Shown here: piece by piece, positions 14,401-34,980 of the stretch
How the letters are laid out: each line of letters begins with the position of its first letter
How positions within the stretch are numbered: position 1 is the first letter of the stretch
NCBI GenBank assembly: GCA_030599585.1
Contig: JAUVNS010000011.1
Span: 1 to 64,000, forward strand
DNA length: 64,000 nt
Source: Promethearchaeota archaeon
Lineage (GTDB): Archaea > Asgardarchaeota > Lokiarchaeia > Sigyniarchaeales > SOKP01
Direction of reading: 5' to 3'
Made by a program: the position numbers and the translations under genes
Notes under the pieces: model-generated
The model's input: the letters and a program-made list of their open reading frames with translations, nothing else
The model's database searches: none
Told to the model about the DNA's origin: nothing

Positions 14401-14472
14401 TTAGTTTTTTAAACTAAATAACTAAAAATAGGTATAAAGGTTGTAAATTCAAATAATATTTTACGTAATTAT

Positions 14473-15869: not shown

Positions 15870-15921
15870 GATAAGTATCGAGAAAGCAGTTGAGTTAGAT
15901 AATAATAACAACAGAAGTGAA

Positions 15922-16407: not shown

Positions 16408-16480
16408 ATCGAAATTAACGAGGTGTTTTATTATCAAGAAAGTAATCATTGCCAGAAATAAGGATGATAACTCTAAATTC

Positions 16481-16705: not shown

Positions 16706-16889
16706 AATGGAAGATAAAAAAGAAAAGTGGAAAAATGAGAATATAGAGGACTTTTAGCGATCTCTGTATATATTTTTTCGGTAACGCTCTTACTGATCGC
16801 ATGGGCGTTATTCGTTGCGTTGTACTTTGTAAAGGTTTTAACAAAAATAAGTCCACTTAAAAGAAATAGTAAAGAGGAGGTAAAAGGTA

Positions 16890-18325: not shown

Positions 18326-18379
18326 AAAAAGGAAGTAAGAACATTAGAAGATTCAAATTTTGAGATTGAGGAACAGAAA

Positions 18380-19042
18380 ATGAATTCGATTTATGTGGAA
18401 AAAACTATTAGAAAGCTTAGGAAAGAAGTTACCTGTAACAAAGAAGTATCTGAAATTCTAGTTAGGCAACCTTTATCTGATCTTTCTTATCCTACATTAT
18501 TTAAAAATGGGAATATGAGAGGAACTTTAGGGAATAGTGAAAGATCGGATATTTCTGCTCAAGAAGATTTAGAGCAATTGCTTAGAGATGTGATATTAGA
18601 ACACAAATATATCTTTGATACGTTTTCAATAAGTGAAAAAAGAAAGTTACAATCTGTTCAAGTTAGATGGAATAATGAACTTATTCATCACATTTTCTTG
18701 TCGAATGGAAGAACAATCATTTCATTTACAACAGGAATCGGTAGTTATCATTTTTCTAAAAATAAGATTTCAATCTCAATAGCTTTCAAATACACTCCAA
18801 TCTGTCTAATTAAATATGTTCTTTTTCATGAACTTCTACATATAAAATTCCTAGGTCATTCTAAAAAATTTCATTCATGTGAATGCCAATATGATAATTA
18901 TAATAGGGTACTAGAATTACTGGACAAAGTTCTTGAACACTATAATATTTCCAGACTTACGCTTTCTGATTTCAAGCGCTATTTAAACGAAAGCAAGTTA
19001 ATTATTGATCCTGAACAGTTTTTTTCCCAACATAAGAATTGA
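18380..19042 (+). CDS. YgjP/DUF45 (M48-like) zinc metallopeptidase domain protein
   Basis: KYVLFHELLH..GHSKKFH (HExxH..H). Confidence 0.78.
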   Translation: MNSIYVEKTIRKLRKEVTCNKEVSEILVRQPLSDLSYPTLFKNGNMRGTLGNSERSDISAQEDLEQLLRDVILEHKYIFDTFSISEKRKLQSVQVRWNNELIHHIFLSNGRTIISFTTGIGSYHFSKNKISISIAFKYTPICLIKYVLFHELLHIKFLGHSKKFHSCECQYDNYNRVLELLDKVLEHYNISRLTLSDFKRYLNESKLIIDPEQFFSQHKN

Positions 19043-19065
19043 GAGATGATTTGAAATGAATCACA

Positions 19066-20121
19066 TTACCTTGAGATTGGAGGATCATGGGAATAATAAA
19101 TTTTTTTGCCAAAGAGATTTAATTGTACTGGTTTTTTCCTTTTATTTTCAATTGTACTTTTCTTTTTGACTTTCTTTATGAGTTCTACTGTCGTCGTACT
19201 AATGAATTTCGATCTAACATCTGTCAAAATGTTAAATAATTGATGTTCTATCTTAAATAAATTATCCCTTTCTATTATAAATAATTTAGAATTGAAAGAA
19301 AAGAATAAAAAGTTTATAAGATGAATAAAATCAATAGATTTTAAGAGATCTTTATTTAACTCTCTAAAATTATTGTTAGTTTTAAATAAGATGAATAAAT
19401 TAAATAATTGTTTTATAAAATCACAAATTAGGAGAAATTCTTCAGAGTTCTTATACGAAGTATCAAGAAATACTTGTGTTATTTTATTTCTAAATTTTGA
19501 TTGCTCCATTAAAACATAATAAAAAAAAGTTCCAAATGATAAAACAATAGCCTCAGCAATATGAATGATGAAATATAAAGGATTATTTTCTTTTTGATTA
19601 AAGAATTGTGAATATGGGACATAATTCATTTTATTACGAATATAAGCACCAAAAAATTTTAGAATTCTTAACGAATTCTCATTTAGAGATAAATTCATAG
19701 AATTTTTATTAAGTTGTAATCCGCAAGTATCGAAAAGATATTCTATAATTAATTCTTTAGTGAGAATATCTTGTATATCGCAATTCTCAATGAATTTTTC
19801 TATGTTTATTTCAGCATCTAGCTGATTTAAAAAAATGCAGAACTTCAAACAAATTTCATTTAAAATAATAATTATTTCTAGTCCAAATTTCTTAGATAAT
19901 ATACTATTATTCTTTAATATATATTCAAATGTTAGAATAAGAAGATTAAGTAGTGAAGAATTTTGTTCAGAATTCAATAATCTAATTGGTTTTTCAAGTT
20001 TTTTCTTTTCTCTCGTTAGATAATTACATACATAATTAATTAATGATAAAAAATCATTTTGATTAGAGATTTCATCTTTAAAAATTGAAAAATTAATATC
20101 CAATCTTTCTAATTCTTCCAA
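19066..20121 (-). CDS. Hypothetical helical protein, last gene of the SMC operon; C-terminal QLNLF motif
   Basis: Leu/Ile/Phe-rich amphipathic helices; ends KPVQLNLFGKK; co-oriented with the SMC operon. Confidence 0.6.
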   Translation of the reverse strand: MEELERLDINFSIFKDEISNQNDFLSLINYVCNYLTREKKKLEKPIRLLNSEQNSSLLNLLILTFEYILKNNSILSKKFGLEIIIILNEICLKFCIFLNQLDAEINIEKFIENCDIQDILTKELIIEYLFDTCGLQLNKNSMNLSLNENSLRILKFFGAYIRNKMNYVPYSQFFNQKENNPLYFIIHIAEAIVLSFGTFFYYVLMEQSKFRNKITQVFLDTSYKNSEEFLLICDFIKQLFNLFILFKTNNNFRELNKDLLKSIDFIHLINFLFFSFNSKLFIIERDNLFKIEHQLFNILTDVRSKFISTTTVELIKKVKKKSTIENKRKKPVQLNLFGKKIYYSHDPPISR

Positions 20122-20221
20122 TTTATTAAATAAGTTATATAATAGCTCCTTTTTTTTATTTAATAAATGTTCAGTTTGAGTTCCTATTTTCTCAATTGTT
20201 ACCTCCCCCTTCTATTATATA

Positions 20222-20794
20222 TTATTTGTATAATTTGTCTTCTAAAAATTCTCCGAGTTCATTTTTTGCCTTATTTGATATGATGACTTTTCCTATATTT
20301 CCTAACATATAGGTTTGTTCACTTGAATCGTAATCAAGTAAATCCATCATTATTAAAAATTTTAAAGCATTATATATTCTACTTTTCTTTTTACTTAATT
20401 CTTTATTTTTTTCAAATAATTCCATTAATTCAATTTTTTTTATTTTTCCTTTCGATAATTGTATCAATCCTATGATTGTCCCAAATAATCCTGCAGTAAA
20501 ATTGTCTAATTCAAGCCCACCAGAATTTGATTCTGAAGCAACAAGATATCTAATTTCCTTATGATTTAAGAAAGGAATTATTTTTTTACCAGTTAAGGCT
20601 AAAAAATTATTTAAATTAGAAATAAGAGATTCCTGATTAATCTTTAATTTTTTAGCATAATCGTTAAAAATAGTTTCTGAACAGCCAAATATAAATTTAT
20701 TTTTTGTACTTGACCATTGAATTTTTTCTAATTTACCAATTATCTCAATGTAAAATTTAGATTTGTCCAAATTTATAATATTATTATCATCCAA
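20222..20794 (-). CDS. KITE subunit (tandem winged helix), MAGE/Nse3-Nse1-like
   Basis: LISNLNNFLALTGKKII..RYLVA..AGLFGTIIGLIQLSKGKIKKIELMELF..YMLGNIG parallels the MAGE/Nse3 pattern (GLLxxILxLIxxxG..ExxLxxxL..YxxGPR); ~190 aa; follows the kleisin-like gene. Confidence 0.62.
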   Translation of the reverse strand: MDDNNIINLDKSKFYIEIIGKLEKIQWSSTKNKFIFGCSETIFNDYAKKLKINQESLISNLNNFLALTGKKIIPFLNHKEIRYLVASESNSGGLELDNFTAGLFGTIIGLIQLSKGKIKKIELMELFEKNKELSKKKSRIYNALKFLIMMDLLDYDSSEQTYMLGNIGKVIISNKAKNELGEFLEDKLYK

Positions 20795-20811
20795 TTTATT
20801 GTATCCTCTTA

Positions 20812-21681
20812 TTATAACTTATTGTAAGTGCTAATTACTAATGATCTGGGATGAGATTTTCTATTCCAATTCTTATAATTTGTTTTAATTTTTAATAAAC
20901 TCCCATCTTTGATTAGTTGTATCCGACCTTCTTTTTCTAAAAAACTAATTGCTTCTGCTTTTTTTATCCGTTCATAGGAATTTTCTGATTTTAAAAACGT
21001 TTTTAATAGACAATTATTGGCAATAAGACTAAAAATTTTTTTTCTTTCACTTAATAAATCTAAATTTAACAATTCAATCCAATCTTCTTTTGTTTCTTCT
21101 TCAAAAATAATATCTGTATTGAATTCCTCTTTGTATTCACTTGAGTTTTCTTTTCTAAAATATCTTTCAATGAAAATTTTGGTTTGAGGTAAAATTTTTT
21201 TAATTATATTTGTAGAAAATGTGAAATTAACATTTGAGATAAAATTAAGAAAAATATTTCCCCATGATTCAATATCTACCTCAGGGATAAAATCTTTTAA
21301 ATCCTCCATATAACTATATTTTAAGTATGAATCTTGGATATCTCTTATTTCAGAAAATAATGCAAAAGTTTCTGATTCAATAATTCTTTCTTGAATTGAT
21401 TGGAGCATATTGTGATAATTAAAAACATCAAAATTATCTAATAATCTTAAAGAAAATGGGTGAAAATCTCCCTTAATAATTTGGTTTGCTTTAATATGAA
21501 GTTTTAAATGATGATCAATTGCCTTTTGCCTATTATCAAGATTAACATAATCAATTGGATCTTCCATTAGATTTATTTTTTTGAAATTAATAAATTTATA
21601 ATTTTTTGGATGTTTTAATATGGGAATTGGAAGTTCTAATATATTTCCTTTAAAAACTCTTCCTTTTCGAAAAAAATTCAA
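20812..21681 (-). CDS. Kleisin (ScpA/Nse4-like)
   Basis: N-terminal EDPIDYVNL..LKLHIKANQII (ScpA-like helix); C-terminal AISFLEKEGRIQLIKD matches the kleisin C-terminal winged helix (SFLxxEGRxxL). Confidence 0.6.
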   Translation of the reverse strand: MNFFRKGRVFKGNILELPIPILKHPKNYKFINFKKINLMEDPIDYVNLDNRQKAIDHHLKLHIKANQIIKGDFHPFSLRLLDNFDVFNYHNMLQSIQERIIESETFALFSEIRDIQDSYLKYSYMEDLKDFIPEVDIESWGNIFLNFISNVNFTFSTNIIKKILPQTKIFIERYFRKENSSEYKEEFNTDIIFEEETKEDWIELLNLDLLSERKKIFSLIANNCLLKTFLKSENSYERIKKAEAISFLEKEGRIQLIKDGSLLKIKTNYKNWNRKSHPRSLVISTYNKL

Positions 21682-22547
21682 CTTGTTTCCTCTTTTAAAT
21701 CAATTAATTCTTGTATATGCTTTAATATTTTCCCTCGTACATTTGGAACTGAATTGCTATATTTACTTAATAAGACATTAGAAACTATTATTATATCTAA
21801 TGTTAATTGATATTGTTCTGTTAGATTGTTAGAAAAAACAATTTTTTTATTCTCTGATAGATTAATAAGTTGTTTTTTTCCCATTCTCTTAACAACTCTT
21901 AAAACTGTATCTCTTGGAAGAAATAAACTTTTACACATATTTGTAATTGTTGTTCTCCCCAACTCTTCATGTCGTAATAGATGTAATATACCCGCTTCAA
22001 CTAGATTGTTTATTATAAGATAATGAATTATTGGTAATCCATGTTTAAAATTCGAATTTTCATATAAAATATCTGAAATATTATCAATAGTTTGCCAAAA
22101 TTGCCTTCCTTTCTTAGAGAATTCTAGAAGCCCGTTATTTTTTCTTAAGAATCCTAAATTTAAAATATTTTCTATATGTTTTAATACTGTTTTTCTCGAA
22201 AAATATAGATTATTTAACAACTCTACTGAATTGATTTGATTATTATTTAATTTACTGAAGAATTGAATTATTTCGATATCGATTTTATTCAATGATTTTA
22301 TCTCAGTAGTATAGGAGTGAATCCTTTCAAATATTTGATTTCCTATTTCTGTAAATTCCACAATATTCTTATAATTTTTATGATCTTCTTTCATTTTAAT
22401 TAATCCTGCTTGAATTCCAATTCTTAAAGAATAGTAGAGCTCTTTTTTTTTTGTTTTATAATAGTCGGCTTCTTCTGAATAAATTTTATATAATAGATCT
22501 AATAGACCTTTTCTTCTAAGAGTTTTAATTAAAAATATTTCTAACAA
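21678..22547 (-). CDS. Triple winged-helix protein
   Basis: Three wHTH-like units: ..AGLIKM..EFTEIG; SRKTVLKHIENILNLGFLRK..EFSKKG; PRDTVLRVVKRMGKKQLI. Confidence 0.65.
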   Translation of the reverse strand: MLEIFLIKTLRRKGLLDLLYKIYSEEADYYKTKKKELYYSLRIGIQAGLIKMKEDHKNYKNIVEFTEIGNQIFERIHSYTTEIKSLNKIDIEIIQFFSKLNNNQINSVELLNNLYFSRKTVLKHIENILNLGFLRKNNGLLEFSKKGRQFWQTIDNISDILYENSNFKHGLPIIHYLIINNLVEAGILHLLRHEELGRTTITNMCKSLFLPRDTVLRVVKRMGKKQLINLSENKKIVFSNNLTEQYQLTLDIIIVSNVLLSKYSNSVPNVRGKILKHIQELIDLKEETS

Positions 22548-22558
22548 TCAGGAAACCT

Positions 22559-25500
22559 CTATAAATTTTCTATTATTATATTCGGCTTTGTTGTACTAAC
22601 GGCAACATGGTTAAATTCATAATTTATTTTCAAATTAGAAATTTCAGGAGTAACGATTATAAATTGGGGGAGAAAATAAGAGGAATTATTATTTTGATTA
22701 TCTTTTATCCTTTCATATTGATCAATAATCATATTAATTATTTGTTTTTGATTAAGACTGTCTAATCTTTGAGTAAATTCATCAATTATTTTCAATGGAG
22801 TTTTTCTAAGAGCTTGTAAACTAAGCAAAAATGATATTACAGTTAAAGCCGTTTGACCCGCACTTAATTTAGTTAAATCCAGGGGTCTATTATCAAAAGC
22901 AGCAAAGATTTCAAGAGAAGTTTCTTCAACATTATTAATTCTCTTAATTTTTATTTCTCCAAAATATGGAATTAATAATCTTTTAAATTCTAAATTTATT
23001 ATCTTTAAGTTTCTTCTTATATCATTTTTATAAGTAGTAAATAACTCAAATTGAATGTTTTTAAGTTCTTCTATCTCTGTATTTCTAATTTCCACTTCGA
23101 GGATATATTTTTCAACTTTCTTTTTTTGCTTTTTAAACATTTCTAATATATTCTCATTAATATCCATAGTTGAAATAAGTGTCTCTGCTTCAGTTTTAAG
23201 AGAGATTAAAGTTGCTGAATCTCTAATTTTTGGAGGTCTAGAACCATATTCCCTTGCTTGTCTTATTAGCTTTATTCTCTTCTCAGCGATTAATTCTAAT
23301 CTAATTTTATAATCAGAGATATCATCATTAAAAATATTTATCTCTCCTTTTAATTGATCAATTTTATTTTGAAATTTACCAAATTTAATATCAAGAGTAC
23401 TAGCCTTATTATTTAGTTGGTCTAAATCAAATTGTTTCTTTTTTAATTCATTATCAAGATACAAAAGTTTTTTATCAAAAGTATTAAATTTTCCATTAAT
23501 ACTTTCTAATCTTTCATTATACTCTTTTAGTTTTAAAATAAGCTCATCGTTTTCTTTCTCAGTAATCATTTTTTCTCGTTCAATTTTTATATTATCATCT
23601 TCTTTAATCAACTCAATAGCTTTTACTAATTTAAATTTCTCATTTTCCTTATTATCATATCTTTTTCTAATACTTTTTAATTCCTGCTCCATTATTTCTC
23701 TCTTTTTCTCAATTTCAATCAATTTTTTTGTAAAATCTTCTATTTTTTGTTCATATTCTTCAAGAATACCAATATCCAAAGAATTAATCCCTATAATCTC
23801 TCGAATTTTGCCTTTTTTAGGACTTCTATAAGAAGGTAAATATCTAAATCCATCGGATGTAAATATATTCATTTTATATTTCTTAGATAACTTAAATAGT
23901 TTGTTTGCATCATCAAAATCAGAGAGTAAGCCATTTCGGTGTTTATTAATATAATTTAATACAATTTGATTTCCTTCTAAGGTATTGATAATTTCTGATT
24001 GAATTGGGGGTGAATAATAATTATCACCTCTCCTTCTTCTGGTTTCATTTTTATCTAAGTAACCCAAACTTACATTAAATTGATTTGTTCTTCTTATTTT
24101 ATCTAATATATTCAAAGAATTTTCATCTAGAGCGATTATATCTTCAGTAATACCACTTAATGAAGCATTAATAGCCTTTGACCATTTTTTGAATAAAGCT
24201 TTAATTGTAATTTCAGTACAAACAGGTCCTACAAAGGAGATATGTTGTATTTTCTGAGTTTTATTAATTTCTTTCAATATTTTTAAAGTATCCTGAGAGA
24301 GTAAAGATGATGTTCCATTTTTTTTTATATTTTCTATTGAATTCTTGTAGCAATTAATATCATTTGTTAATCGCCTTATTTGATAATTAAAATCAGTTAT
24401 TTGTTGATTTAAATCAAATTTTTTTTCATTTAATTGATTTATTTCTTGATGGATTTTTTTAATCTGACCGTCCAATTCCTTAAAATATTCTGTTGAGGTT
24501 GTTATTTTAGTTTCTTTGAGCTTTTTATTTAAAAAATCTATCTTCTTTCTTAAATTTTTAATCCGATTTTCTTTATCTTTCTTTTTAAATGATATTTTTT
24601 GTTGTTCTCTTTTTAAAGATTCAATAATACTTCTATAATCAGAATATTGAACAGATAATGTTGATACTTCATTATTTTCTAAGGATTGGATTTTTTTAAT
24701 TTCTTCTTTTTGTTTTATTATATCTTGTATTTCCCTTTCAAGTTTAATCTTTTCATTTGCTTTTTGATGCAATTCTCTTTCTTTATATTTTAAAGAAGAT
24801 CTTAAAATTTTTTCTTCTTTTTCAATATCAACCACGGGAACCCAGAATAACTCTAACCTCAGATTTTTTAATGTGTCCATTAAATGAATTTTATTTTCAT
24901 AACGATTTTTTTGCTCTTCTAATTTATTAAGATAACCTTCTTCTGTTGCTAACTTTTCAAACCAAAAGCTTTTTTCTCCTTCCAACTTTTTAATCTTTTC
25001 TCTTCCAATTATCATTTTTTTCCTATATTCTTCTAATCCGGTAGCTCCAGCAAAAGTAGTAAAAAGATCCCTTTTATTGGTATTTAATAATGAGTCAGGA
25101 GTATGCTGAGACATAAAAATAAATTCATTATTAGGTTCTATATTCATTAGAGCAACAATCTTGTCTAATTGGGCTTTTTTTATTCTTCGATTAGCAATCT
25201 TCCAATAATTCATCTTTTTCTTGATAATTCGATGAATTGTAAAGGTCTCATTATTAATTAAATCATAAAGAGGTGATTCTGGAGGTAAATTGATTAATCT
25301 CCTTCCATTGATTCTTGGATTACAAATTTTTAAAGATATTTCAGATTTTTGTTTTCCTTCCATTATTACTTCAGATATGGATTTTAAATTTGGAAAAATT
25401 AAACTTGAAGCCCCTAGACATATTTGAATTGATTGTATTAAAATAGACTTTCCAGCACCATTTGGCCCTGTAATAATTGTTAAACCATATTTAAATTCAA

Positions 25501-25606
25501 TTTCAATGTCTTCATACCGGATAAAATTTAATAACCTTAAGGATTTAATAATTCCTACATTTAATTTGTTTTTCAAATTACCTTTTCCCCTTTTTTGTTT
25601 TCTCAA
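22559..25606 (-). CDS. Smc5/6-like SMC ATPase (start may be TTG at 25576)
   Basis: NFIRYE, Walker A GPNGAGKS, MNIEPNNEFIFMSQ Q-loop, coiled coils, hinge VGPVCTEITIK..KWSKAINASL, signature LSAGQ, Walker B PLKIIDEFTQRLD, QFIIVTP; head and hinge resemble eukaryotic Smc5/6. Confidence 0.88.
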   Translation of the reverse strand: MRKQKRGKGNLKNKLNVGIIKSLRLLNFIRYEDIEIEFKYGLTIITGPNGAGKSILIQSIQICLGASSLIFPNLKSISEVIMEGKQKSEISLKICNPRINGRRLINLPPESPLYDLINNETFTIHRIIKKKMNYWKIANRRIKKAQLDKIVALMNIEPNNEFIFMSQHTPDSLLNTNKRDLFTTFAGATGLEEYRKKMIIGREKIKKLEGEKSFWFEKLATEEGYLNKLEEQKNRYENKIHLMDTLKNLRLELFWVPVVDIEKEEKILRSSLKYKERELHQKANEKIKLEREIQDIIKQKEEIKKIQSLENNEVSTLSVQYSDYRSIIESLKREQQKISFKKKDKENRIKNLRKKIDFLNKKLKETKITTSTEYFKELDGQIKKIHQEINQLNEKKFDLNQQITDFNYQIRRLTNDINCYKNSIENIKKNGTSSLLSQDTLKILKEINKTQKIQHISFVGPVCTEITIKALFKKWSKAINASLSGITEDIIALDENSLNILDKIRRTNQFNVSLGYLDKNETRRRRGDNYYSPPIQSEIINTLEGNQIVLNYINKHRNGLLSDFDDANKLFKLSKKYKMNIFTSDGFRYLPSYRSPKKGKIREIIGINSLDIGILEEYEQKIEDFTKKLIEIEKKREIMEQELKSIRKRYDNKENEKFKLVKAIELIKEDDNIKIEREKMITEKENDELILKLKEYNERLESINGKFNTFDKKLLYLDNELKKKQFDLDQLNNKASTLDIKFGKFQNKIDQLKGEINIFNDDISDYKIRLELIAEKRIKLIRQAREYGSRPPKIRDSATLISLKTEAETLISTMDINENILEMFKKQKKKVEKYILEVEIRNTEIEELKNIQFELFTTYKNDIRRNLKIINLEFKRLLIPYFGEIKIKRINNVEETSLEIFAAFDNRPLDLTKLSAGQTALTVISFLLSLQALRKTPLKIIDEFTQRLDSLNQKQIINMIIDQYERIKDNQNNNSSYFLPQFIIVTPEISNLKINYEFNHVAVSTTKPNIIIENL

Positions 25607-26558
25607 TTTCTTGTTTTAAGAGATCAGATATAGATAATGACTTAGTTTCTTGATCTTGTATTACTTTTTCGCTTTGTTTATCTAAATTACTTAATTCCAT
25701 ATGTTTTTGCGTACCTCCAATATAGAGTATTGTTGATACAGCTTTTTCATTATCAATAATGAATTTATCTCTGGTTGGGGAAGATAAATATTCAATATAA
25801 ATGCTTCTAACAAGGCGTTCTATATCTGAGGGACTAAAACCTTCTAACTGTTTTGTTATTACATTAAAATCTAAATCTAAAACAATGTTAGGTTCAATAT
25901 TTTCTAATTTTTTCGAGAAGTATTTTAAGATATCAAATCGTTCTTTAAAATCAGGTAATGGAAAATGTATATGATATAAGAATCTCCTCCAAGCAGCGGA
26001 ATCTAATGTAGATTCATGATTAGTTGCTGCAATAATAACTAAAGGATGGACTCCATACATTAAAGAATCAATGCCTCTCAATAATTCATTTACTGCTCTT
26101 TTCATCTCACCAATTTCAGTGGGATCAGCCCTTTCTCTTGCTAAAGAATCAAATTCATCAATAAATAATACAGTTGGCTTACCTTCTTTAAACCTTAGAT
26201 TTGCATATTCACCAATATGAGTAAAAAGTGAATTTATATTTTTTAAAGTCTCTCCAAAATGTGATTCAAAAATTGTAGACGGTTGAATCTCTATTAAAAT
26301 TGTATTTTTTTTCCGACAAATCGCTCTAGTAAGAAGAGTTTTTCCTACACCTGGAAAACCATAAAGTAATGCTGAAAGGTTAGAATTCAATCCTGCTTTT
26401 TCTAATTTTGAAAAATTTTTTGCTGCAACTATAATATTTTGTAGGATTTTTTTTTGAATTTCTAATCCAATTATCTCTGATATATTCTCTTTAATCTCAT
26501 CAGGAGATCTAATGATGCAATATTTTAGAATCTCTTTTTCTAAATCTTCTATCTTCAT
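25578..26558 (-). CDS. Classical AAA+ ATPase (IetA-like clade)
   Basis: GFPGVGKT, LFIDEFDSLARER..GEMKRAVNELL, AATNHESTLDSAAWRRF (second region of homology). Confidence 0.9.
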   Translation of the reverse strand: MKIEDLEKEILKYCIIRSPDEIKENISEIIGLEIQKKILQNIIVAAKNFSKLEKAGLNSNLSALLYGFPGVGKTLLTRAICRKKNTILIEIQPSTIFESHFGETLKNINSLFTHIGEYANLRFKEGKPTVLFIDEFDSLARERADPTEIGEMKRAVNELLRGIDSLMYGVHPLVIIAATNHESTLDSAAWRRFLYHIHFPLPDFKERFDILKYFSKKLENIEPNIVLDLDFNVITKQLEGFSPSDIERLVRSIYIEYLSSPTRDKFIIDNEKAVSTILYIGGTQKHMELSNLDKQSEKVIQDQETKSLSISDLLKQEIEKTKKGKR

Positions 26559-26621
26559 TTTATATTTTGATTTTTTTTTTTTTGCTAAAGTTTATATATA
26601 AATAATGCATATTATGATATA

Positions 26622-26669
26622 AAAAGTTAACTCAAAAGTTAACTCAAAAGTTAATTGAAAAGTTAAATA
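26622..26669 (+). promoter_or_regulatory. Four tandem 12-bp repeats (AAAAGTTAAyTs) in the divergent promoter region
   Basis: aaaagttaactc aaaagttaactc aaaagttaattg aaaagttaaata, between the AAA-SMC operon and the HD operon; TATA-like tttatatata just upstream. Confidence 0.7.
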
Positions 26670-26690
26670 AAAACCAACCTTGTAGAAAAA

Positions 26691-27752
26691 ATGTCAAATT
26701 TAGAAATAACAAAAATCCAGAAAGAAAAAATAGAACAATTATTAGTTAAATTAAATCGTAATGTTAAAAATTTCGAGGAAAACACAAACATAGATATAGG
26801 ACTTATTAAAGAAGATATTTTAAATCAAATTAATAATTGTATATTGCTAATCTCTAATTATATTGAGCTAGTACATAGAGTTGGAACTGGTGAATCTTTT
26901 AGACAACAAATATTGCGGTTAATGGGTAAATCTAAAATCGCAGATCTTTATATTAAAGCAATAGTACAACCTGATTGGGTTAGCGTTAAAGATCCTATAA
27001 ACAAAAAATCAAGTGAAATTGAGGAATTTTCACCAGCTTGGATTACACGAATTCAAGATTTATTTGTTCTATTTCAAGATAAAGGAGAAAATGAGGAAAT
27101 TATGCTTTTTGATTATTTATCTTATAATTTAGGAGAAAAAAAAAATGTCATAAATCATAGAACGGAAACTTTCGCTAAGTTTTGTAAATTATGTGGGTTG
27201 AATGTGGATATTAATGAAGATGGTTGGCCTTCACGATTGGCACCTGTTATGATTGAAATAAAAAGGTATAATAATAATTTATGGGATAAAAATATCAGAC
27301 TTGTTCCATTTTTATCTTTATTAAAGCACAGTATGGATTTTGATAGTTCTAAAACTTTATCTTATAAATTTTCGATACTAATCTCGTTAATTTTTATTAT
27401 TTTTTATATATCAAATCATTCTAATCCCAAAACTTGCAAGGCAATGAATGATATATTGAGAAGTACAGATACTTATTTAGATGAAAAATTTAATTTACAA
27501 ACAGACTTAGATCTTTTTATTGAGATTGTTGCGACTTTTGGAAGAATGATATGTATAATTTTATATGGTAATGATGATGGATTTTACCCTACAGAAAAAC
27601 AACTTGAATATAAAACTTATCGGTCTCAAATTACGGTTATCCTTCTAAAATTAACAAATGAATTATTTAATTTTACCCAGAATGGTATTACTCTTACTGA
27701 TCATCCAATAGTTAATCTAATTCATGATTTACGAGTATCTCTTAATTTGTAA
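26691..27752 (+). CDS. Hypothetical protein (353 aa), first gene of the HD operon
   Basis: Long ORF, no recognised motif. Confidence 0.7.
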   Translation: MSNLEITKIQKEKIEQLLVKLNRNVKNFEENTNIDIGLIKEDILNQINNCILLISNYIELVHRVGTGESFRQQILRLMGKSKIADLYIKAIVQPDWVSVKDPINKKSSEIEEFSPAWITRIQDLFVLFQDKGENEEIMLFDYLSYNLGEKKNVINHRTETFAKFCKLCGLNVDINEDGWPSRLAPVMIEIKRYNNNLWDKNIRLVPFLSLLKHSMDFDSSKTLSYKFSILISLIFIIFYISNHSNPKTCKAMNDILRSTDTYLDEKFNLQTDLDLFIEIVATFGRMICIILYGNDDGFYPTEKQLEYKTYRSQITVILLKLTNELFNFTQNGITLTDHPIVNLIHDLRVSLNL

Positions 27753-27762
27753 TCGAAGGTGA

Positions 27763-28869
27763 ATGTTATTGTCAGAAATGAATAGAGAATTATTACAACA
27801 ATTATACAATATTGCAATATCAAGAAACCCAATCCTTTTCTTATATACAATAAAAAAATTAGATAAAGAAAGACCTTTTCTGAAAAAAATCCAAGAAAAA
27901 GGATATTTTACTATTAAAGAATCAGACGATAAAGAGATTCTAAAAATAATCAAATTTTTTGATAAATATCCTGATGAAGAAAGATATAGTATGGCAAAAT
28001 CATTTATTAAAAAACTAACTTTATTAGGGATTTCCTATAAATTAGGAGAAGGAAAGTACAGTATTGAAAATCAATTAAATATTAATTTTGAAAAAGGCGG
28101 TGCATCATTAAAACAAATCCATAAGAGTGTTGGAGGCGGATATACTAAATCTTATGTTCAGAAAGTTATAGTTGGTAAGCTAAAACATCCAAGATCCCCT
28201 AATGATGGAAAGATTTATCCCATAATTAATTCTGAATCAATTCCAAATCAGAAATCTAAGCTTTTTACACTTGATGAGATAGTATATAATGCCATTGAGA
28301 ATGAAGAAAAGAATTTAAAAGGAGTGATTTCAGAATTATTTTTCTATGAATTAGAATTAAGACAATATTTTGAGGAAATTCTGAATAAAAGAAAGAAATT
28401 ATCTCAGATACAAGTACAATTAGAAAATTTCGATAAAGAAATTGAGGTTTTAAAATCAGAACATAACCAAATAAATAAAATAAATGAAGCTATCAAGAAA
28501 AATCAAGATTTTCAAGAAAAATTTGAATTATTAATAGAATCTATGAAAGAAATACAGAATAAAAGAAAAAGAATAAGTAAGTTAATCAGAGAATGTTCAA
28601 ATTTTAAGGTTCAGGTTGAGAACTTCTTGAAAAAAATAAATAGATTATCATTCGCAGAATTACAATCATTTTTTGGAATTTTTACAGAGTCAATTTCACA
28701 TTTTAACAACAAGAATATCAATCTTTTTCAAATACTAGATAAATTGATTCATAATTCTAAGATTATTATTAATGAGATGTCTACAGATAAAATTTCTGAA
28801 ATAAAATATGATTATCAAGCAAAAAATCTTCAATATATAAATTTAAAGAATAAAGTTCAATCGTATTAA
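27763..28869 (+). CDS. Hypothetical protein with a wHTH-like segment and a long C-terminal coiled coil
   Basis: GASLKQIHKSV..TKSYVQKVI..KLFTL (wHTH-like); heptad-rich C-terminal half. Confidence 0.6.
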   Translation: MLLSEMNRELLQQLYNIAISRNPILFLYTIKKLDKERPFLKKIQEKGYFTIKESDDKEILKIIKFFDKYPDEERYSMAKSFIKKLTLLGISYKLGEGKYSIENQLNINFEKGGASLKQIHKSVGGGYTKSYVQKVIVGKLKHPRSPNDGKIYPIINSESIPNQKSKLFTLDEIVYNAIENEEKNLKGVISELFFYELELRQYFEEILNKRKKLSQIQVQLENFDKEIEVLKSEHNQINKINEAIKKNQDFQEKFELLIESMKEIQNKRKRISKLIRECSNFKVQVENFLKKINRLSFAELQSFFGIFTESISHFNNKNINLFQILDKLIHNSKIIINEMSTDKISEIKYDYQAKNLQYINLKNKVQSY

Positions 28870-28903
28870 TCATTTTATTTTATAAAAGGGTTGGAAAAAT
28901 TAT

Positions 28904-30451
28904 ATGGTCATAGAATATAATGATATTACTAAAAGATTAAGTGAGATTTGGAGATCAGGTAAACCCAATTTAATTGCTCAACCTGAATATCTTATGATTC
29001 GTGATCCAATTCATGGAATGGTTAAACTAGAATGGTATCAAAAATATTTAATTGATCAACCTTTCTTTCAGAGACTAAGAGGAATCTCTCAGTTAGGATT
29101 TACCTATCTTATATATCCTGGAGCAATTCATACTAGATTTGAACATAGCATCGGTGTCTCTTATCTAGCAGAAAAAGTTTTTACTGTTTTAAATGAATTT
29201 GATCCTATGTTAGATGAATATGATATTACATTAACTAAATCTGATTTAATTCATATCAAATTAGCTTCATTATTGCACGATATTGGACATTTACCGATGT
29301 CTCATTCGTCAGAAATTATATTCAATAGACTTAATTCAGAGAGAGAAAAAATTGATATAATCAAAAAAGACTTAATAGGAAATGCAAATCATAATGTGGC
29401 ACCTCACGAAATATTATCCGCCTGGTTAGTCTCGACAGATTATGTTAAAGAAGTTTTAAATGAAATAGAACAAAAACTAAATAAAGAATTAGAATCTGAT
29501 AAAGTAAAAATAAATCCAGATGATATTAAGTCAATGATTTTAGGATTACCAACTAGAGATATCAAAAAGTATTTTCTTTCGAATATAATTCATGGTGAAC
29601 TAGATGTTGATAGAATCGATTATTTATTAAGAGATGCTCATCACACAGGTGTTCCCCATGGTCAAGTTGATTTAACTTATTTATTATCAACAATATGTTT
29701 AATTCCAGATAAAGAAAATGATGGTTTGTTAAAAATTGGTATTAAACGTAAGGGATTACAATCTGTTATTGCCCTTTTATTATCAAGAGCAACAATGTAT
29801 CCAACAGTATATTTACATCATACGAGCAGAATTGCTGAAGAAATGTATTTGAGAGCACTCTATCATGCTATAATTAAAAATAATTTTGAAAGTCTTAATT
29901 TATTACATTTTAATAATAGTCAAATTCTTGAATATTTAAGAACGCTCCCAGGAATTCCAAATCAAATGATAGAAAGAATAATGCGAAGGGATTTGTACAA
30001 ACGTGTAAATTCATTTCGTTTCAATTCGGAAATTATTAAAAGAAATATTCGGAATAATCAATTTACCATTTCATTGCACTTGGAAACAGAATTCTTAGAT
30101 TATAAATTCTATAATGATTTTTCTGATCTTATTAAGTTAGAAAATGATATTGCAAATATAAGTAATGTAGATTCTGATGAAATAATTATAATTAACTTGT
30201 CAAAAATACCTCAAATCTCCGATATTAATAAAAAATATAATATTTATATTAAAGAACAAGATGAATCTGTATATTCACATATTTCAGATTCTTCCTTCTT
30301 GATTTCGGCAACCCAAATGGAAGATTTTCAAAATTGGGAACTCCAAATCTGCTGTCCTGAAAAATCTAAAGAGGATGTTAAAAGGTATTTTAAAGAGAAA
30401 TGCCCTTTTCCTATTCTAAACTCCAAATCTATTTCAATTGTAGATTTTTAA
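28904..30451 (+). CDS. HD-domain dNTP triphosphohydrolase (SAMHD1/COG1078 family)
   Basis: IRDPIHG, FQRLRGISQLG, YPGAIHTRFEHSIG, LLHDIGHLPMSH, ELDVDRIDYLLRD, RATMYPTVYLH. Confidence 0.92.
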   Translation: MVIEYNDITKRLSEIWRSGKPNLIAQPEYLMIRDPIHGMVKLEWYQKYLIDQPFFQRLRGISQLGFTYLIYPGAIHTRFEHSIGVSYLAEKVFTVLNEFDPMLDEYDITLTKSDLIHIKLASLLHDIGHLPMSHSSEIIFNRLNSEREKIDIIKKDLIGNANHNVAPHEILSAWLVSTDYVKEVLNEIEQKLNKELESDKVKINPDDIKSMILGLPTRDIKKYFLSNIIHGELDVDRIDYLLRDAHHTGVPHGQVDLTYLLSTICLIPDKENDGLLKIGIKRKGLQSVIALLLSRATMYPTVYLHHTSRIAEEMYLRALYHAIIKNNFESLNLLHFNNSQILEYLRTLPGIPNQMIERIMRRDLYKRVNSFRFNSEIIKRNIRNNQFTISLHLETEFLDYKFYNDFSDLIKLENDIANISNVDSDEIIIINLSKIPQISDINKKYNIYIKEQDESVYSHISDSSFLISATQMEDFQNWELQICCPEKSKEDVKRYFKEKCPFPILNSKSISIVDF

Positions 30452-30518
30452 TAACTTAATAATCGTATTATTAAGAAATAAAAAAAAATTACATGAAAAA
30501 GCCATTGGACAGACAATA

Positions 30519-30836
30519 ATGAGAACAAGACAGAAGAATAACAATAAATTTGACATAATAAATCAGGTATTATTTAATAATGAAAAGAGTTATGAAGAAT
30601 TGGAAAAAATTTTTAAGACTCCTACAGTTATTGATAGATTATTAAAGGAATTTAGAGATTCAGGAGCAATAATAGAGATTCCAAGATATAATATGATTGA
30701 AAAAGAAGCTAGAAGAATAAGTAATCCCGAATTAATATAACCAATAGATTCTGATGAATATAAAAAATGAGAAAAAGAAATAAAGGAATATCTTGAAAAA
30801 CAATTTGAAGAAAAAGGAAAATCTAAGAAAAATTAA
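30519..30836 (+). pseudogene. Small wHTH-like gene remnant with in-frame stops at 30738 (TAA) and 30768 (TGA)
   Basis: Frame continues as PIDSDEYKK*EKEIKEYLEKQFEE..* after the track ORF 30519..30740. Confidence 0.4.
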
Positions 30837-30847
30837 AGTTTTAAAAA

Positions 30848-31105
30848 TTATTCTTTAGCAACTTTTCTAACTATATCTGCTATATTACCCCTTTTCTTAT
30901 ATTGCCATTTTCTTATCCTTTGCCCTCGATATTTATCATTTTTTTTAAGCCATCTCAGCCAAGTTAGAAGAGTCTTATCTGCTTTTGATCTGTTACATGC
31001 TTGACATGCGTTCACTGTAGTAACCCCTCCTTTACTTTTAGGTTTAATATGTTCCTTTTCTATTTTCCAAGAACTCCCACAGTATTTACAAACTTTTTCT
31101 ATCAT
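30848..31105 (-). CDS. Small HNH endonuclease
   Basis: CKYCG..EHIKPKSKGG..NACQACNRSK. Confidence 0.85.
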   Translation of the reverse strand: MIEKVCKYCGSSWKIEKEHIKPKSKGGVTTVNACQACNRSKADKTLLTWLRWLKKNDKYRGQRIRKWQYKKRGNIADIVRKVAKE

Positions 31106-31551
31106 CTGTTCTTTTCACGATTTTTATATTTTAATATGATTAGCTTGAAAGCATTTCTAAGGTGTTTAGGTTCCACTATAACCAATTTATTATCAAGTTC
31201 TTTTCTAAACTGCTTGAAATTTTCTACTTCAATGATTTGATTTTTCTCCCATATATGATTTTCCAATAATAATTCAATTCTAAAAATAGTTTTATTATCC
31301 TTAGAATATATCTCTAATATTTTAAAGGGAGAATCTAAAATTCGTTCCCAACCGCCTAGATTACCTTTTGGCGTGTAAAAAGTTTTTATAAGACCATATT
31401 CACCCATCTCAAAGAAATGTTTCCAACTATTATTATCTTTAAATAGAACTTTTAATTTGGTAGTTACTGCTAAGATTTTTTTAAATTCACTAAGAGGTTT
31501 TTCGAAAGAACTCGGAAATAGATAAATCTCTTTATTTACTTCATTATGCAT
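31102..31551 (-). CDS. Hypothetical protein
   Basis: ORF overlapping the HNH start (ATGA-type coupling). Confidence 0.55.
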   Translation of the reverse strand: MHNEVNKEIYLFPSSFEKPLSEFKKILAVTTKLKVLFKDNNSWKHFFEMGEYGLIKTFYTPKGNLGGWERILDSPFKILEIYSKDNKTIFRIELLLENHIWEKNQIIEVENFKQFRKELDNKLVIVEPKHLRNAFKLIILKYKNREKNR

Positions 31552-31632
31552 TAATAAACACCCATTTTTCTTTATTTTTTGTTTAATTTATTTTTAGTCT
31601 TTATTATTAATATAAAGCAATTTTGTTAAGTT

Positions 31633-32719
31633 TTTTGAGATCAATTTTATTAAATCATAAATAGTTAATAGTAGTATAAAGTAATTTAAGACAAATTATG
31701 TTACTATGAAGGTAAACGAGTTATTGGATGATATAGAAGAAGAACATTATAATATATTAATATGATATTTAGATTTATCGAAATTAAAAGGCATCAAATC
31801 TAATAAAATTATTCCTGAAAAAAACTACTGCAAATAAAGCCCATGCCCCTTTAAAAGTCTGAATTCTTTTTTTTTCGGTTCGTTAATTATAAACTTCGTA
31901 AACTAATATTTATATATAGTAAAAACAGAATTATTTATCATCAGATTGGTGCCTTAGAGTCGAACACCCCCCTTTTCAAGAGCTCGTTCACGACGTCTGC
32001 AGTCCCTTTTCTAAACGCACAATGAAAATGAAAACAAATGTAGTGTGTGTCGCCTTTTGTCCACAAAATAAAGTGATCGGGAGAAGAAGGGTTTTCAATT
32101 ATTTTTTCGCACAACACACACTCTAACAGTTTTTTTTTAAAATAATCCTCGTCGGGGCGGTAATTTGACAAATCCCGAACCAAATTCCGAACATCCGAAT
32201 TAAATAAGTCGTATATATCCGCATGGTCAACCTCTTGGATTTTCTCGCCTTTAATTAATAATTGATTCATAATTTTTGTCTACTATTATTTTTGTAGGTA
32301 TCGTATTTAAGTCTATTGTAACCGAAATATGGGGTTTTAAATGTCCTAATTGAACCTTTATGATTTTTCATATCGTCTCGGTTAAATCGTGCCTGAAATA
32401 CGGTCTAAAAAAAATTATAAAAAATCCACTATTTTTGTATTCGCAAAGTGAGATTACACGACGATTTATCGGTAAAAACTAAGCTCTGTCAAATCGTCAA
32501 TTACTCCCTCTCTACTATCGTTTCGCGAGGAGAAAAAATCTTGATAATTTTAAGGTGTATTTTTGTACTAACGAAAAAGATTGCTATTTTTAGGGTTTAA
32601 AGTGTAAACGAAATAAAAATCAATTCTTCAGGGTATTTTTCAAAAAATATTTCATTATTAATTTTCTTTAAAGTTTTTGAGATTGATTTCTGTAGAACAA
32701 AAATAGTAAACAGTAGTAT
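31633..32719 (+). repeat. Imperfect 45-bp direct repeats (31633-31677 and 32675-32719) flanking a small Zn-finger-like gene
   Basis: ttttgagatcaattttattaaatcataaatagttaatagtagtat versus ttttgagattgatttctgtagaacaaaaatagtaaacagtagtat (35/45 identical by manual alignment). Confidence 0.5.
31941..32270 (-). CDS. Small putative Zn-binding protein
   Basis: CVLC...HFHC motif; locally more GC/CpG-rich than neighbours. Confidence 0.55.
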   Translation of the reverse strand: MNQLLIKGEKIQEVDHADIYDLFNSDVRNLVRDLSNYRPDEDYFKKKLLECVLCEKIIENPSSPDHFILWTKGDTHYICFHFHCAFRKGTADVVNELLKRGVFDSKAPI

Positions 32720-32970
32720 TCACTATTCAAGGGATAATACCATTTATAAACTTTACGCAAAGTTTAAATACTAAATGTTAAATGAACATTTTAAGTTATT
32801 TATAAAGGCAAAATTCTCTACATGGAGAAAGCAAGAATATATAAATCTGAAATTTTATTTACCTAAATAGAGTTTCGAGGATAGTTTTTTGCTACATATT
32901 TAAATAGATTATAATAAAAATAATTTTGAAATTAAAGAACTTTATATAATAAAAATGGAATTAGAATAAA

Positions 32971-34980
32971 ATGGGTAGCATGAAAGAAGAGATCAAAAAA
33001 GAAATTATAAGTAGATTTGAACAAGAAATTGAAAAGTTTAATCTTGGTGAGCCCCATAAATCTGTCTCACAGATACATGAAGAGTTTAAAGAGCATTTTA
33101 GTGATAAAACAATCCAAAACATTGGTAAAACCTACTTTCCTGAAGATTATAAAATAATATATAGTAAACCTAAAGTATCACAAGAAGTGTATAGGGATAT
33201 AAAAGTAAGAATTGCTATTGAAATTGATAGATTTTATTCAGGCTATTCAGCAACTCCTCTTGAACAGATTTATAAAGAATTTAAAAATGTTATAAATTCT
33301 GTAGATACAATTTATTACATTGGGAAGAAAGAATTTCTTGATGAATATAATGAAATTTGGGCAAGACAACCTCTTCCAGATGAAGTCATGAGAGAAATAA
33401 TAAATATTTTAAAAAAAGAGATTTTAAACTATAAGAATGGAATAAAACCGAAATCAATAAGTCGAATTCACAAGGACTTTCAAGAAAAAGTAAAATCTTC
33501 TTCTGTTATTGCAAAGATAGCTAGAGGGAACTTTCCAAAATACTACTATGAAATATGGACTAAAGTTAAGATAACACCTGAAATTAAAGATAAAGCAATA
33601 AAGAGAATAAAAAGAGAAATAGATTTTTATAAAAGTGGTCATGAACCCTTGTCAATACGAGATATATGGAAAGAGGACTTTCAGCCTTATATGTCAGAGG
33701 GTCAGCTTGGTGAGATTGGAAGAAAAGCCTACCCGGAAGATTATGAACTTATTTGGGGTGCTTATAGAATACCTGTCGAGGTTAAAGAATATTTGATTAA
33801 AACTATAAATAATGAGATTTCTAAATATGATTCAGGAAAAACACCAGATTCCATACGCCAAATTCAACAGAAATTTGGTAAATGGGTTAAATCAAAAGAT
33901 CATATAATTTCCATAGCAAAAAATGTGAACTCTGAAAAATATGACGAAATATGGAGTATCCCTCGTATTCCAGAACATATTAAAATTCAGGTAATAGAAG
34001 TAATAAGAAATGAAATTGCTAAATATAAAGACGGCTTAGAACCAAGAAATATTAAAGAAATTTGGGAAGATAATTTTATTCAAGTTATTAAAACTAGAGA
34101 TACGATTAGTGATATAGCAAAAAAAGCATTTCCAAATGAATATGATCTTATTTGGGGGAAAGAAATCCCTGATGATAAAAGAATAGGAATTATTCAAGAT
34201 ATCCTTGATTATGGTAATCCTAATGTTAGAACAATAGGACAAATTGCACATAAATATGGAGTAAGCAATACTACAGTTATTCGCATTTCAGTAAACGAAG
34301 TGAAGGGTTGCTACACCTCTTTTAGTCACGAAGAGCGATTTCCACAAGATTTTTTCGCAGCATTAGGAACTATTTTACATAATATAATTAAATATTTAAT
34401 CACAGCTCATTTTTGGAGGAAAAATTCAAAAGCTTACTCAGAGATAATTGTAGATTTCAACACCCGTGTTTTAATTGATAATTTTTTCCTTAATGTCAAA
34501 TCTCATAACTATTTATATAAAGTATTAGAATGTAATAGATATTTAGTAAAAGAAATGCATTTAGATATCGATGAAACAAGAAATATAAATGGTTTTATGT
34601 TTGATTACACTAATGATGTTTCAGAAAAAAATATAAGAAAAAAGGGTAAAAAATATCAAAAAAAAGACAAGTTACTATTCATTGTAGGGACGAGATGGCC
34701 TAGGAAATATAAAAAGAGAATTATTGAAACAAGCTTTAAAAACATAAGGATAATCAAGCATGACTTGTTTGCTGAATTTATTGGGATAGATGGTAAAATA
34801 TTAGATATATTTAATTATGCTATTGGACTAAATTATATATTTGATCTAAATGCTTTAAAAGAAACTTTAATGGGTATTGAGAATAATTTTCTAAAGAAAT
34901 TTGGTAGAGATTTATTTAAAAATGATGACCTTAAAAAAGATCTTGAAAAAAAAGGCATAAGATATGATGATTTTTTTTGA
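32971..34980 (+). CDS. Protein with six ~66-aa HTH-like repeats, a seventh HTH and a C-terminal putative PD-(D/E)XK nuclease domain
   Basis: Repeats ..EI..Y..G..P.SI..I..F...S...I..I.K..FP..Y..IW; IGQIAHKYGVSNTTVIRI HTH; GTILH..YSE..IDN..FDYT..KKYQ nuclease-like region. Confidence 0.7.
   Translation: MGSMKEEIKKEIISRFEQEIEKFNLGEPHKSVSQIHEEFKEHFSDKTIQNIGKTYFPEDYKIIYSKPKVSQEVYRDIKVRIAIEIDRFYSGYSATPLEQIYKEFKNVINSVDTIYYIGKKEFLDEYNEIWARQPLPDEVMREIINILKKEILNYKNGIKPKSISRIHKDFQEKVKSSSVIAKIARGNFPKYYYEIWTKVKITPEIKDKAIKRIKREIDFYKSGHEPLSIRDIWKEDFQPYMSEGQLGEIGRKAYPEDYELIWGAYRIPVEVKEYLIKTINNEISKYDSGKTPDSIRQIQQKFGKWVKSKDHIISIAKNVNSEKYDEIWSIPRIPEHIKIQVIEVIRNEIAKYKDGLEPRNIKEIWEDNFIQVIKTRDTISDIAKKAFPNEYDLIWGKEIPDDKRIGIIQDILDYGNPNVRTIGQIAHKYGVSNTTVIRISVNEVKGCYTSFSHEERFPQDFFAALGTILHNIIKYLITAHFWRKNSKAYSEIIVDFNTRVLIDNFFLNVKSHNYLYKVLECNRYLVKEMHLDIDETRNINGFMFDYTNDVSEKNIRKKGKKYQKKDKLLFIVGTRWPRKYKKRIIETSFKNIRIIKHDLFAEFIGIDGKILDIFNYAIGLNYIFDLNALKETLMGIENNFLKKFGRDLFKNDDLKKDLEKKGIRYDDFF

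Follow-up and report, generated by a model that had tools for sequence, protein, structure and literature searches.

Immunity based on complexes of structural maintenance of chromosomes (SMC) proteins, as in Wadjet, Lamassu and human Smc5/6, and depletion of deoxynucleoside triphosphates (dNTPs), as by bacterial dGTPases, Clover and human SAMHD1, are both known, each as a strategy of its own. In the 64,000-nucleotide stretch of DNA of a Promethearchaeota archaeon of the class Lokiarchaeia analyzed here (the window; contig JAUVNS010000011.1 of assembly GCA_030599585.1), relatives of both kinds of protein are encoded next to each other. Six genes on the minus strand, among them those for an AAA+ ATPase (AAA326) and an SMC-superfamily ATPase (SMC1015), diverge from three genes on the plus strand, which are two orphan genes (U353 and U368) followed by a gene for an HD phosphohydrolase (HD515). 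The nine genes are one heritable, transferable accessory cassette that is rare worldwide; its parts are of known kinds, while their combination is new.

The plus operon has counterparts among dNTPase systems. Clover, as described in the available part of its source (PMC12265719), combines the dNTPase CloA with the nucleotidyltransferase CloB, a toxic HD dNTPase being gated by an accessory product from the same operon. By analogy the plus operon may follow the same concept, an HD dNTPase encoded behind accessory regulator genes, but U353 and U368 are not nucleotidyltransferases as judged from the lack of a Pfam match. With the SAMHD1/EF1143/Aq_1910-type enzymes HD515 shares both Pfam domains, the H..HD..D ligands and the neighboring Arg and His residues, whereas its gene differs in following two orphan genes in an operon inside a mobile cassette. 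Unlike the anti-phage dGTPases, HD515 belongs to the COG1078 branch and not to the Dgt branch.

The minus operon resembles Wadjet, other SMC-based immunity and episome restriction by Smc5/6 in having an SMC ATPase with small partners, encoded in an accessory and transferable locus among defense genes, and SMC1015 gives local matches to JetC (best 1e-11). In contrast to Wadjet, no JetA, JetB or JetD (Toprim nuclease) model matched in the 15 proteins scanned, the cassette has an extra AAA+ ATPase, and its sole recognizable non-ATPase enzyme is the HD phosphohydrolase. SMC1015 also matches the LmuB models of Lamassu (2.6e-18), but no LmuA or LmuC match was found. Similarly, AAA326 matches the PADLOC model of IetA from IetAS, whereas no IetS-like protease was detected by Pfam in the cassette. 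SMC5/6-related operons composed of SMC, kleisin and kite genes have been described in TACK and Asgard archaea (bioRxiv 10.1101/2024.01.07.573240, available part). SMC1015 has relatives of ~1000 aa in distant Asgard loci, which may be of this kind; there the SMC gene is accompanied by three small open reading frames (ORFs), one of them a g190 homologue. The distant loci differ in comprising four genes in housekeeping-like contexts, without the AAA gene, g351 or the three genes of the plus operon.

A full-text literature search, judged mainly by title and abstract, returned no description of a system in which an SMC operon and an HD dNTPase are coupled. The main text of two Asgard defensome papers (PMC11291487 and PMC13700489), the supplements of which may list candidates, does not contain SMC, 'HD domain', dGTPase, Wadjet or Lamassu.

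Organization and borders of the cassette

The window is located on a 201-kb contig (C11) of a genome assembly of 4.85 Mb in 52 contigs (G000). The assignment to Asgard archaea has indirect support from the ribosomal proteins S4e and L14 and the ribokinase encoded in the window, whose cluster members with ≥90% identity bear the names Promethearchaeota or Candidatus Lokiarchaeota archaeon. The features of the locus are listed in Table 1. A sequence-only reading of the window had given the coordinates and strands of the ORFs and a divergent spacing of 132 bp from the AAA-SMC operon, all of which were reproduced exactly by the ORF list. Within the plus operon the intergenic gaps are 10 bp (U353/U368) and 34 bp (U368/HD515), and in the minus operon the 3' end of AAA326 overlaps the start of SMC1015 by 29 bp.

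Table 1. Genes and other features of the nine-gene locus, with positions in the window.
Feature	Positions	Strand	Description
U353, first gene of plus operon	26691..27752	+	353 aa ORF, orphan
U368, second gene of plus operon	27763..28869	+	368 aa ORF, orphan
HD515, third gene of plus operon	28904..30451	+	515 aa; Pfam HD and HD_assoc_2
AAA326, first gene of minus operon	25578..26558	-	326 aa; classic-clade AAA+ ATPase, IetA-like
SMC1015	22559..25606	-	1015 aa; SMC-superfamily ATPase; Pfam SMC_N
g289a	21678..22547	-	289 aa; weak winged-helix signal
g289b	20812..21681	-	289 aa; matches no known family
g190	20222..20794	-	190 aa; small subunit; homologue in distant Asgard SMC operons
g351, last gene of minus operon	19066..20121	-	351 aa; matches no known family
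Divergent spacer between U353 and AAA326	26559..26690		132 bp
Nine-gene cassette, limits by DNA homology	19091..30452		11.4 kb; blastn against L006

When JGI metagenome contigs were scanned with a U353 profile, a single locus (L006) was obtained; it carries all nine genes in unchanged order. Protein identity between the window and L006 was 96% for the HD enzyme, 92% for g289b, 91% for g289a and the SMC protein, 90% for g190 and 86% for the AAA protein, and was lowest for g351 (81%), U353 (80%) and U368 (74%). No further ORF of at least 70 aa in L006 matched any ORF of the window at E ≤ 1e-5. At the DNA level, one single blastn alignment of 11,373 columns with 90.8% identity connected positions 19091-30452 of the window to positions 2407-13756 of L006. 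The aligned block begins at the 3' end of g351 and closes with the HD515 stop codon. The flanks of the two loci are unrelated, and the genes flanking the cassette in L006 had their best matches on other contigs of G000.

The borders were further compared with Logan contigs from four runs, belonging to four studies, over positions 15000-34900 of the window. Contigs in X2, X3 and X5 (three studies) start matching at exactly 19091 and are unlike the window in the sequence beyond. The depth in the bin 18320-18983 was 0, 0, 0.05 and 0.63 in the four runs versus 9-50 inside the cassette. On the right side, one X2 contig reaches 31557 and one X3 contig reaches 30868. Since the Logan runs hold near-identical strains, they confirm the left border and add little evolutionary depth. 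Runs that hold the stretch came from 11 studies, with marine sediment, cold seep and subsurface samples.

The cassette was not detected in related genomes. U353 was found in none of 60 relatives, including 36 congeners, and U368 in none of the 60 save for one marginal coiled-coil match at E 7.9e-4. SMC1015 was found in 0/134 genomes of the window's own family at E ≤ 1e-30. A DNA search with positions 13000-32900 against 41 congeners gave no match above ~220 nt inside the cassette. The sequence-only reading had suggested that the nine genes may form one system. The finding of one co-inherited unit with sharp borders is in agreement with this, while the distant SMC operons without an HD gene described below are not.

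A proposed sensor-effector module

The divergent spacer contains a near-palindromic TATA-like box at ~26584-26606 that is conserved between the window and L006, together with the next 23 nt. Between this box and the start codon of U353 lies a 12-bp tandem repeat (26622-26666, 3.8 copies by Tandem Repeats Finder). L006 shares no more than its first unit, and the rest of the window shows no enrichment of this unit. The spacer may act as a shared bidirectional promoter.

Because the nine genes are colinear, the borders are sharp and the spacer with its conserved TATA-like box is shared, the cassette can be read as one unit. We tentatively propose that this unit is one anti-episome or anti-virus sensor-effector defense module of nine genes, which we regard as quite possible without considering it established. 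In such a module the Smc6-like SMC complex would recognize foreign DNA, and the AAA+ ATPase AAA326 would act as a loader or remodeller of the complex. The winged-helix/coiled-coil protein U368, together with U353, would couple or gate the response. HD515 would be the effector, as in the sequence-only reading, which had the dNTPase act in place of JetD, and would lower dNTP pools such that the invader cannot replicate. We infer the defense function, any contact of plus-operon products with minus-operon products, and the way in which signalling runs. If the proposal is true, the cassette would be the first case of SMC immunity and dNTP depletion acting as one system, and a tractable model for an SMC complex that signals to a non-nuclease effector.

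HD515 and the distribution of its family

Pfam detected the HD domain (31.6 bits, cut-off 22) and HD_assoc_2 (107 bits, cut-off 23.1) in HD515, the latter at residues 279-375 and ~405-497. Because the second HD_assoc_2 stretch (30116-30394) spans the C-terminus, HD515 carries no extra domain there. Comparison with solved structures gave 30 distinct sequences at E ≤ 0.01, with 2hek at the top (4.6e-32), followed by 2q14 and 9mr6, and EF1143/2o6i at 2.7e-23. Many SAMHD1 chains matched residues 25-318 at E ~5e-27. The HTRFEH, HDIGHxPxSH and DVDRIDYxxRD motifs of HD515 align opposite the equivalent motifs of SAMHD1. Residues H81, H125, D126 and D236, for metal binding and catalysis, are in place, as are R78, H129 and H134, which we take to be, with this numbering, the counterparts of the SAMHD1 metal and substrate sites. 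All 40 of the 40 aligned family members keep H76, R78, E80, H81, H125, D126, H129, H134, D234, D236, D239, R243, D244 and H305. An FQRLR motif at residues 55-59 is conserved as well, and may have the allosteric role of the corresponding SAMHD1 motif.

Judged from these comparisons, HD515 is a SAMHD1/EF1143-type (COG1078) HD phosphohydrolase, and it is predicted to be a dNTP triphosphohydrolase. The Pfam domains, the SAMHD1 alignment and the invariant columns are all in accordance with the earlier description of an HD triphosphohydrolase with intact SAMHD1-family motifs, the activity itself being predicted. The accompanying idea that homologs of two human antiviral factors are located together holds at the level of families. 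It does not extend further, as HD515 has no SAM domain (Pfam detected HD and HD_assoc_2 only, and the core alignment starts from ~residue 25) and stands no nearer to SAMHD1 than to solved COG1078 proteins of prokaryotes, of which 2hek scores better. The occurrence of the cassette in Lokiarchaeia would thus bear on the origin of eukaryotic restriction factors at family level only, HD515 being no specific SAMHD1 ancestor. Against the NCBIfam model of anti-phage dGTPases (NF041026, cut-off 400 bits) HD515 scored 22.6 bits in a local match of residues 76-143 only, and the PADLOC dGTPase model matched residues 73-145 at 6.8e-8.

With HD515 as the query, a relative at E ≤ 1e-10 was found in 252/400 genomes of the phylum. 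Such relatives occur in 31/31 genomes of family f13, 12/12 of f15, 12/12 of f18 and 18/19 of f19. In the window's own family they occur in 22/134 genomes and in its genus in 0/41. A search with Pfam PF19276 also found the HD family in 0/41 congeners, and was positive in 9/14 control genomes. The best non-self match of HD515 among the genomes of the phylum had 40-42% identity. A quick maximum-likelihood tree (62 rows) placed HD515 together with P0004 to P0007 in a clade of five rows (SH-aLRT 100, stem 0.95) which was separate from the HD copies of the window's own family, its sister position being tentative (support 81). Since the HD family is found in 0/41 congeners, HD515 is by its distribution an accessory and not a housekeeping copy. 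A grouping of the HD gene with housekeeping copies had been named in the sequence-only reading as an outcome that would count against it; the opposite was found, with HD515 in a clade of its own.

Among the best 20 other HD loci of the phylum, inspected over ±8-10 kb by tblastn and hidden Markov model (HMM) searches, none contained U353, U368 or the SMC gene of the cassette. One of them has an unrelated tandem AAA gene at 5 kb distance.

The distribution of the HD family bears on a reading without defense, in which an acquired nucleotide-pool regulator (HD515) and a second chromosome-maintenance SMC complex take part in ordinary DNA metabolism. The near-universal presence of COG1078 HD genes in f13, f15 and f18 agrees with such a role, and bioRxiv 10.1101/2024.01.07.573240 treats the Smc5/6-related operons of TACK and Asgard archaea as chromosomal machinery. 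However, the cassette was not found in 41/41 congeners and its SMC gene was not found in 134/134 genomes of the own family. Moreover, the cassette is extremely rare worldwide, moves between contexts and sits among defense genes, and its central gene pair is hypervariable. We consider this reading very unlikely.

G000 encodes just one further HD_assoc_2 protein (893 aa; contig C37, L002:286-2967), in which a Ser/Thr protein kinase domain is fused to a SAMHD1-type HD core. A counterpart of 786 aa (L100:8554-10911) comes from a different genus within the same family. Both proteins have long branches in the HD tree, where they group together (SH-aLRT 97).

The orphan proteins U353 and U368

Neither U353 nor U368 gave a Pfam, NCBIfam, PHROG or meaningful PADLOC match, and among the members of both families neither a nucleotidyltransferase nor any other Pfam match at E ≤ 1 recurred. 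Among 5.8 billion proteins, U353 was represented by 6 clusters and U368 by 7. A U353 profile search of 1.84 billion representatives returned 6 proteins.

U353 is mostly helical and has conserved hydrophobic stretches at ~220-245 and 272-294 according to hydropathy analysis, the last (C-terminal) third of the protein being best conserved. The AlphaFold model of U368, with a predicted local distance difference test score (pLDDT) of 76, shows a winged-helix region at the N-terminus (~1-190) and, toward the C-terminus, a bundle of long helices or a coiled coil (~190-368). The top structural match of the winged helix was a JetABC entry, tied with generic winged-helix proteins, and no JetA, JetB or JetD match was found in the U368 family with the PADLOC models. 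Model and structural matches support the winged helix-turn-helix plus coiled coil that had been proposed for the 368-aa protein, which we consider its probable fold. Structure prediction was thus informative for U368 and not for U353, for which a poor prediction (pLDDT 51.8) and no usable model were obtained. In a distant clade of U368 the winged-helix half has 55-57% identity versus 35% for the helical half. At least three U368 alleles (100%, 73% and 68%) occur within the 90% cluster of the HD enzyme.

In a more specific version of the proposed module, U368, with its winged helix and long helical bundle, would be an adaptor resembling a kleisin and would, jointly with U353, attach the dNTPase to the Smc6-like ring, such that recognition of small or foreign DNA leads to dNTP depletion and not to cleavage. 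We regard this version as improbable. If true, it would represent nuclease-free SMC immunity in the archaea closest to eukaryotes; in eukaryotes, Smc5/6 and SAMHD1 relatives restrict viruses separately.

The ratio of nonsynonymous to synonymous divergence (dN/dS) between the window and L006 was 0.16-0.35 for all nine genes, with 0.16 for U353. All nine genes are therefore under purifying selection, as expected of real genes. The synonymous divergence itself varied over a sevenfold range. At the low end were HD515 (0.095), g289b (0.109), g289a (0.113), g190 (0.118) and SMC1015 (0.147), and at the high end AAA326 (0.28), g351 (0.36), U353 (0.685) and U368 (0.685). In 300-nt windows, DNA identity was 71-85% across 26549-28948, with 92-97% in the SMC core and 95-98% from the point where the HD gene begins. 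The jump in identity at the start of the HD gene indicates that the spacer, U353 and U368 have been exchanged by recombination within a conserved frame. The U353/U368 pair may represent a specificity-determining or antagonist-exposed part, and a hypervariable central pair would fit such a part of a defense system.

The U353-U368-HD trio in other lineages

Members of the HD and orphan protein clusters were compared by the sizes of their contigs. Contigs of 12,303 bp were common to HD (95%) and U368 (73%) cluster members, and contigs of 12,830 bp to HD (66%), U368 (51%, partial) and U353. A distant trio lineage (HD 57%, U353 39-40%, U368 44-46%) was present on contigs of 15,979, 15,992, 16,032, 14,427, 13,559 and 7,794 bp. 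Equal contig sizes in bp are an indication, though no proof, that the members are located on the same contig. In NCBI, the locus tags of a U353 fragment (ES705_03820) and an HD protein (ES705_03822) are two apart. These data suggest that U353, U368 and the HD515 clade travel together in at least four sequence lineages. From gene order and contig co-occurrence, the trio is a conserved operon in which two fast-evolving orphans are followed by the HD enzyme.

The contigs of the diverged trio are of nearly equal size in three sources, with 15,979 bp in Logan, 15,992 bp in JGI and 16,032 bp in ENA/Logan. Near-equal contigs of ~16 kb would fit a small complete replicon or a repeat-bounded element.

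These sizes raise the alternative that the cassette is cargo of a ~16-kb plasmid- or virus-like mobile element, in which the SMC complex would serve partition or compaction and the HD enzyme competitor exclusion or nucleotide-pool control, the copy in the window being integrated or captured. A small replicon would give such contigs in different sources, the cassette moves between contexts, and multi-copy sequences occur on both sides of it in the window. On the other hand, flanking repeats could also give equal contig sizes. No integrase, replication or capsid gene or other viral or plasmid hallmark was recognized within or beside the cassette, and the orphan profiles found no relatives in 2.9 million viral contigs or in plasmid and phage collections. 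Furthermore, the neighbors in both L006 and the window are cellular or defense genes. A mobile-element origin of this type appears quite unlikely.

The SMC operon and its distant relatives

The five best PDB matches of SMC1015 were Smc6 sequences (2.3e-15 to 1e-10); prokaryotic Smc, Smc5 and Rad50 ranked behind them. The sequence contains recognizable Walker A, signature and Walker B motifs. With Smc6 chains as the closest solved relatives, the initial designation as Smc5/6-like is in this sense justified for the SMC protein. AAA326 matched Pfam AAA (5.3e-27), the PADLOC IetA model (1.8e-55) and the NCBIfam IteA model, the latter with 162.6 bits, which is under the cut-off of 510. For g289a weak matches were obtained to HTH_24 (1.2e-4) and to a Csa3-like model (2.8e-6). 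No Pfam match was found for g289b, g190 or g351, no nuclease signature was detected in g351 by profile scans, and no Nse or Scp Pfam model matched any of the small proteins.

Full-length relatives of SMC1015 (22-26% identity, ~1000 aa) are present in 31/399 other genomes of the phylum, all outside the window's own family. We compared 20 of these 31 loci with ~8.5 kb of surroundings. Three small ORFs (~260, ~210 and ~155 aa) follow the SMC gene in 18 of the 19 distant loci that have a full SMC ORF. The second of these is homologous to g190 (hhalign probability 82%, E 1e-5, ~100 residues), while g289a, g289b and g351 have no detectable kinship with the small ORFs of the distant operons. In five loci analyzed with Pfam, the surroundings of the distant operons look like ordinary metabolism and transport genes. 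The distant operons may be those described in bioRxiv 10.1101/2024.01.07.573240, and these four-gene operons may form a different complex. The cassette resembles a mobile offshoot of the distant SMC-operon family that has gained the AAA+ gene, g351 and the trio.

Genes for JAB deubiquitinase-like and ThiF/E1-like proteins occur within ~5 kb of the SMC operon in 10/20 distant loci (L037-L056). This linkage was observed in 3/3 loci of family f18, where the genes lie directly downstream of the three small ORFs, in 7/7 of f19 and in 0/9 of f13. It is possibly of interest because the Smc5/6 complex of eukaryotes has ubiquitin and SUMO ligases among its subunits.

One module or two neighboring systems

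Several observations weigh against a single nine-gene module. None of the 20 distant Asgard SMC loci contains a COG1078 HD, AAA, g351, U353 or U368 gene by tblastn and HMM searches, and the SMC family therefore needs no HD partner in general. The sequence-only reading had itself named SMC operons without the HD operon as a counterargument; this situation was found in the distant homologues (0/20 with HD) and not in the sole close one, L006. The full nine-gene linkage is seen in two lineages only, with 91% identical DNA, in addition to near-identical strains, and diverged trios (40-66% identity) are known from protein clusters. The COG1078 HD family is also housekeeping in most other Asgard families, as reflected by its 252/400 genomes. 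Defense genes cluster, so neighboring systems can be co-carried, and no PADLOC system model covers the nine-gene set. The low quality of the U353 model is a further point against it.

The main alternative, which accounts for part of these observations, is that two independent systems that happen to be neighbors in a defense island moved together, one a three-gene dNTPase system in which the orphans sense and gate, the other a six-gene AAA+/SMC system with its own unrecognized effector. Apart from the distant SMC operons without the trio in 20/20 loci, the conservation of the trio in four lineages compared with its SMC linkage in two would be expected in this case, as would the mosaic divergence, which indicates that segments recombine separately. 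One-gene and two-gene dNTPase defense systems exist according to the available parts of PMC12265719 and PMC13519002, and g351 and g289b, which belong to no known family, could hide an effector. However, the homologous block ends exactly at the outer gene ends, and there is no conserved inter-operon junction that would mark two insertions. The two operons also share the 132-bp spacer with one conserved TATA-like box. Furthermore, neither half was seen alone in 400 genomes of the phylum or in the protein clusters, the latter being limited by short contigs. We consider two co-transferred systems rather unlikely, and retain the nine-gene sensor-effector module as our tentative proposal. Even if the halves are independent, the trio would be a new predicted dNTPase system with two orphan, fast-recombining partners.

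Genomic surroundings

In L006 the cassette is bordered on one side by a gene for a 362-aa SIR2_2 protein and on the other by one for a SIR2_2-TPR protein. Further defense-like genes in this variable region of the window encode a GmrSD-type restriction endonuclease (3433-5298) and a SLOG (LDcluster4)-methyltransferase fusion (9986-11818). A YgjP-like peptidase gene (18380-19042) and an HNH gene (30848-31105) are neighbors of the cassette, and a ribosomal-protein cluster is located ~4.5 kb from it. By their gene content, both contexts look like defense islands.

The HNH gene is part of a minus-strand unit at 30848-31551 which encodes a 149-aa unknown protein and an 85-aa HNH protein with an HNH like that of IscB/Cas9d (NCBIfam 1e-6). 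This unit is shared with the near-identical strains up to 31557 and is absent from L006.

To the left of the cassette, positions 15857-18126 contain three genes of 161, 136 and 342 aa that belong to no family and form a multi-copy sequence. Further copies, frequently located at the end of a contig, are present on C15 and C3 of this genome and in many congeners, and the sequence may be an unrecognized mobile element. A repeat of ~130 nt is found at 32430-32567, with copies of 85-93% identity on C32 (twice) and C39 and also in several congeners. An adjoining partial match of 82% occurs on C15, and the contig depth in the Logan runs is raised over 32264-32927.

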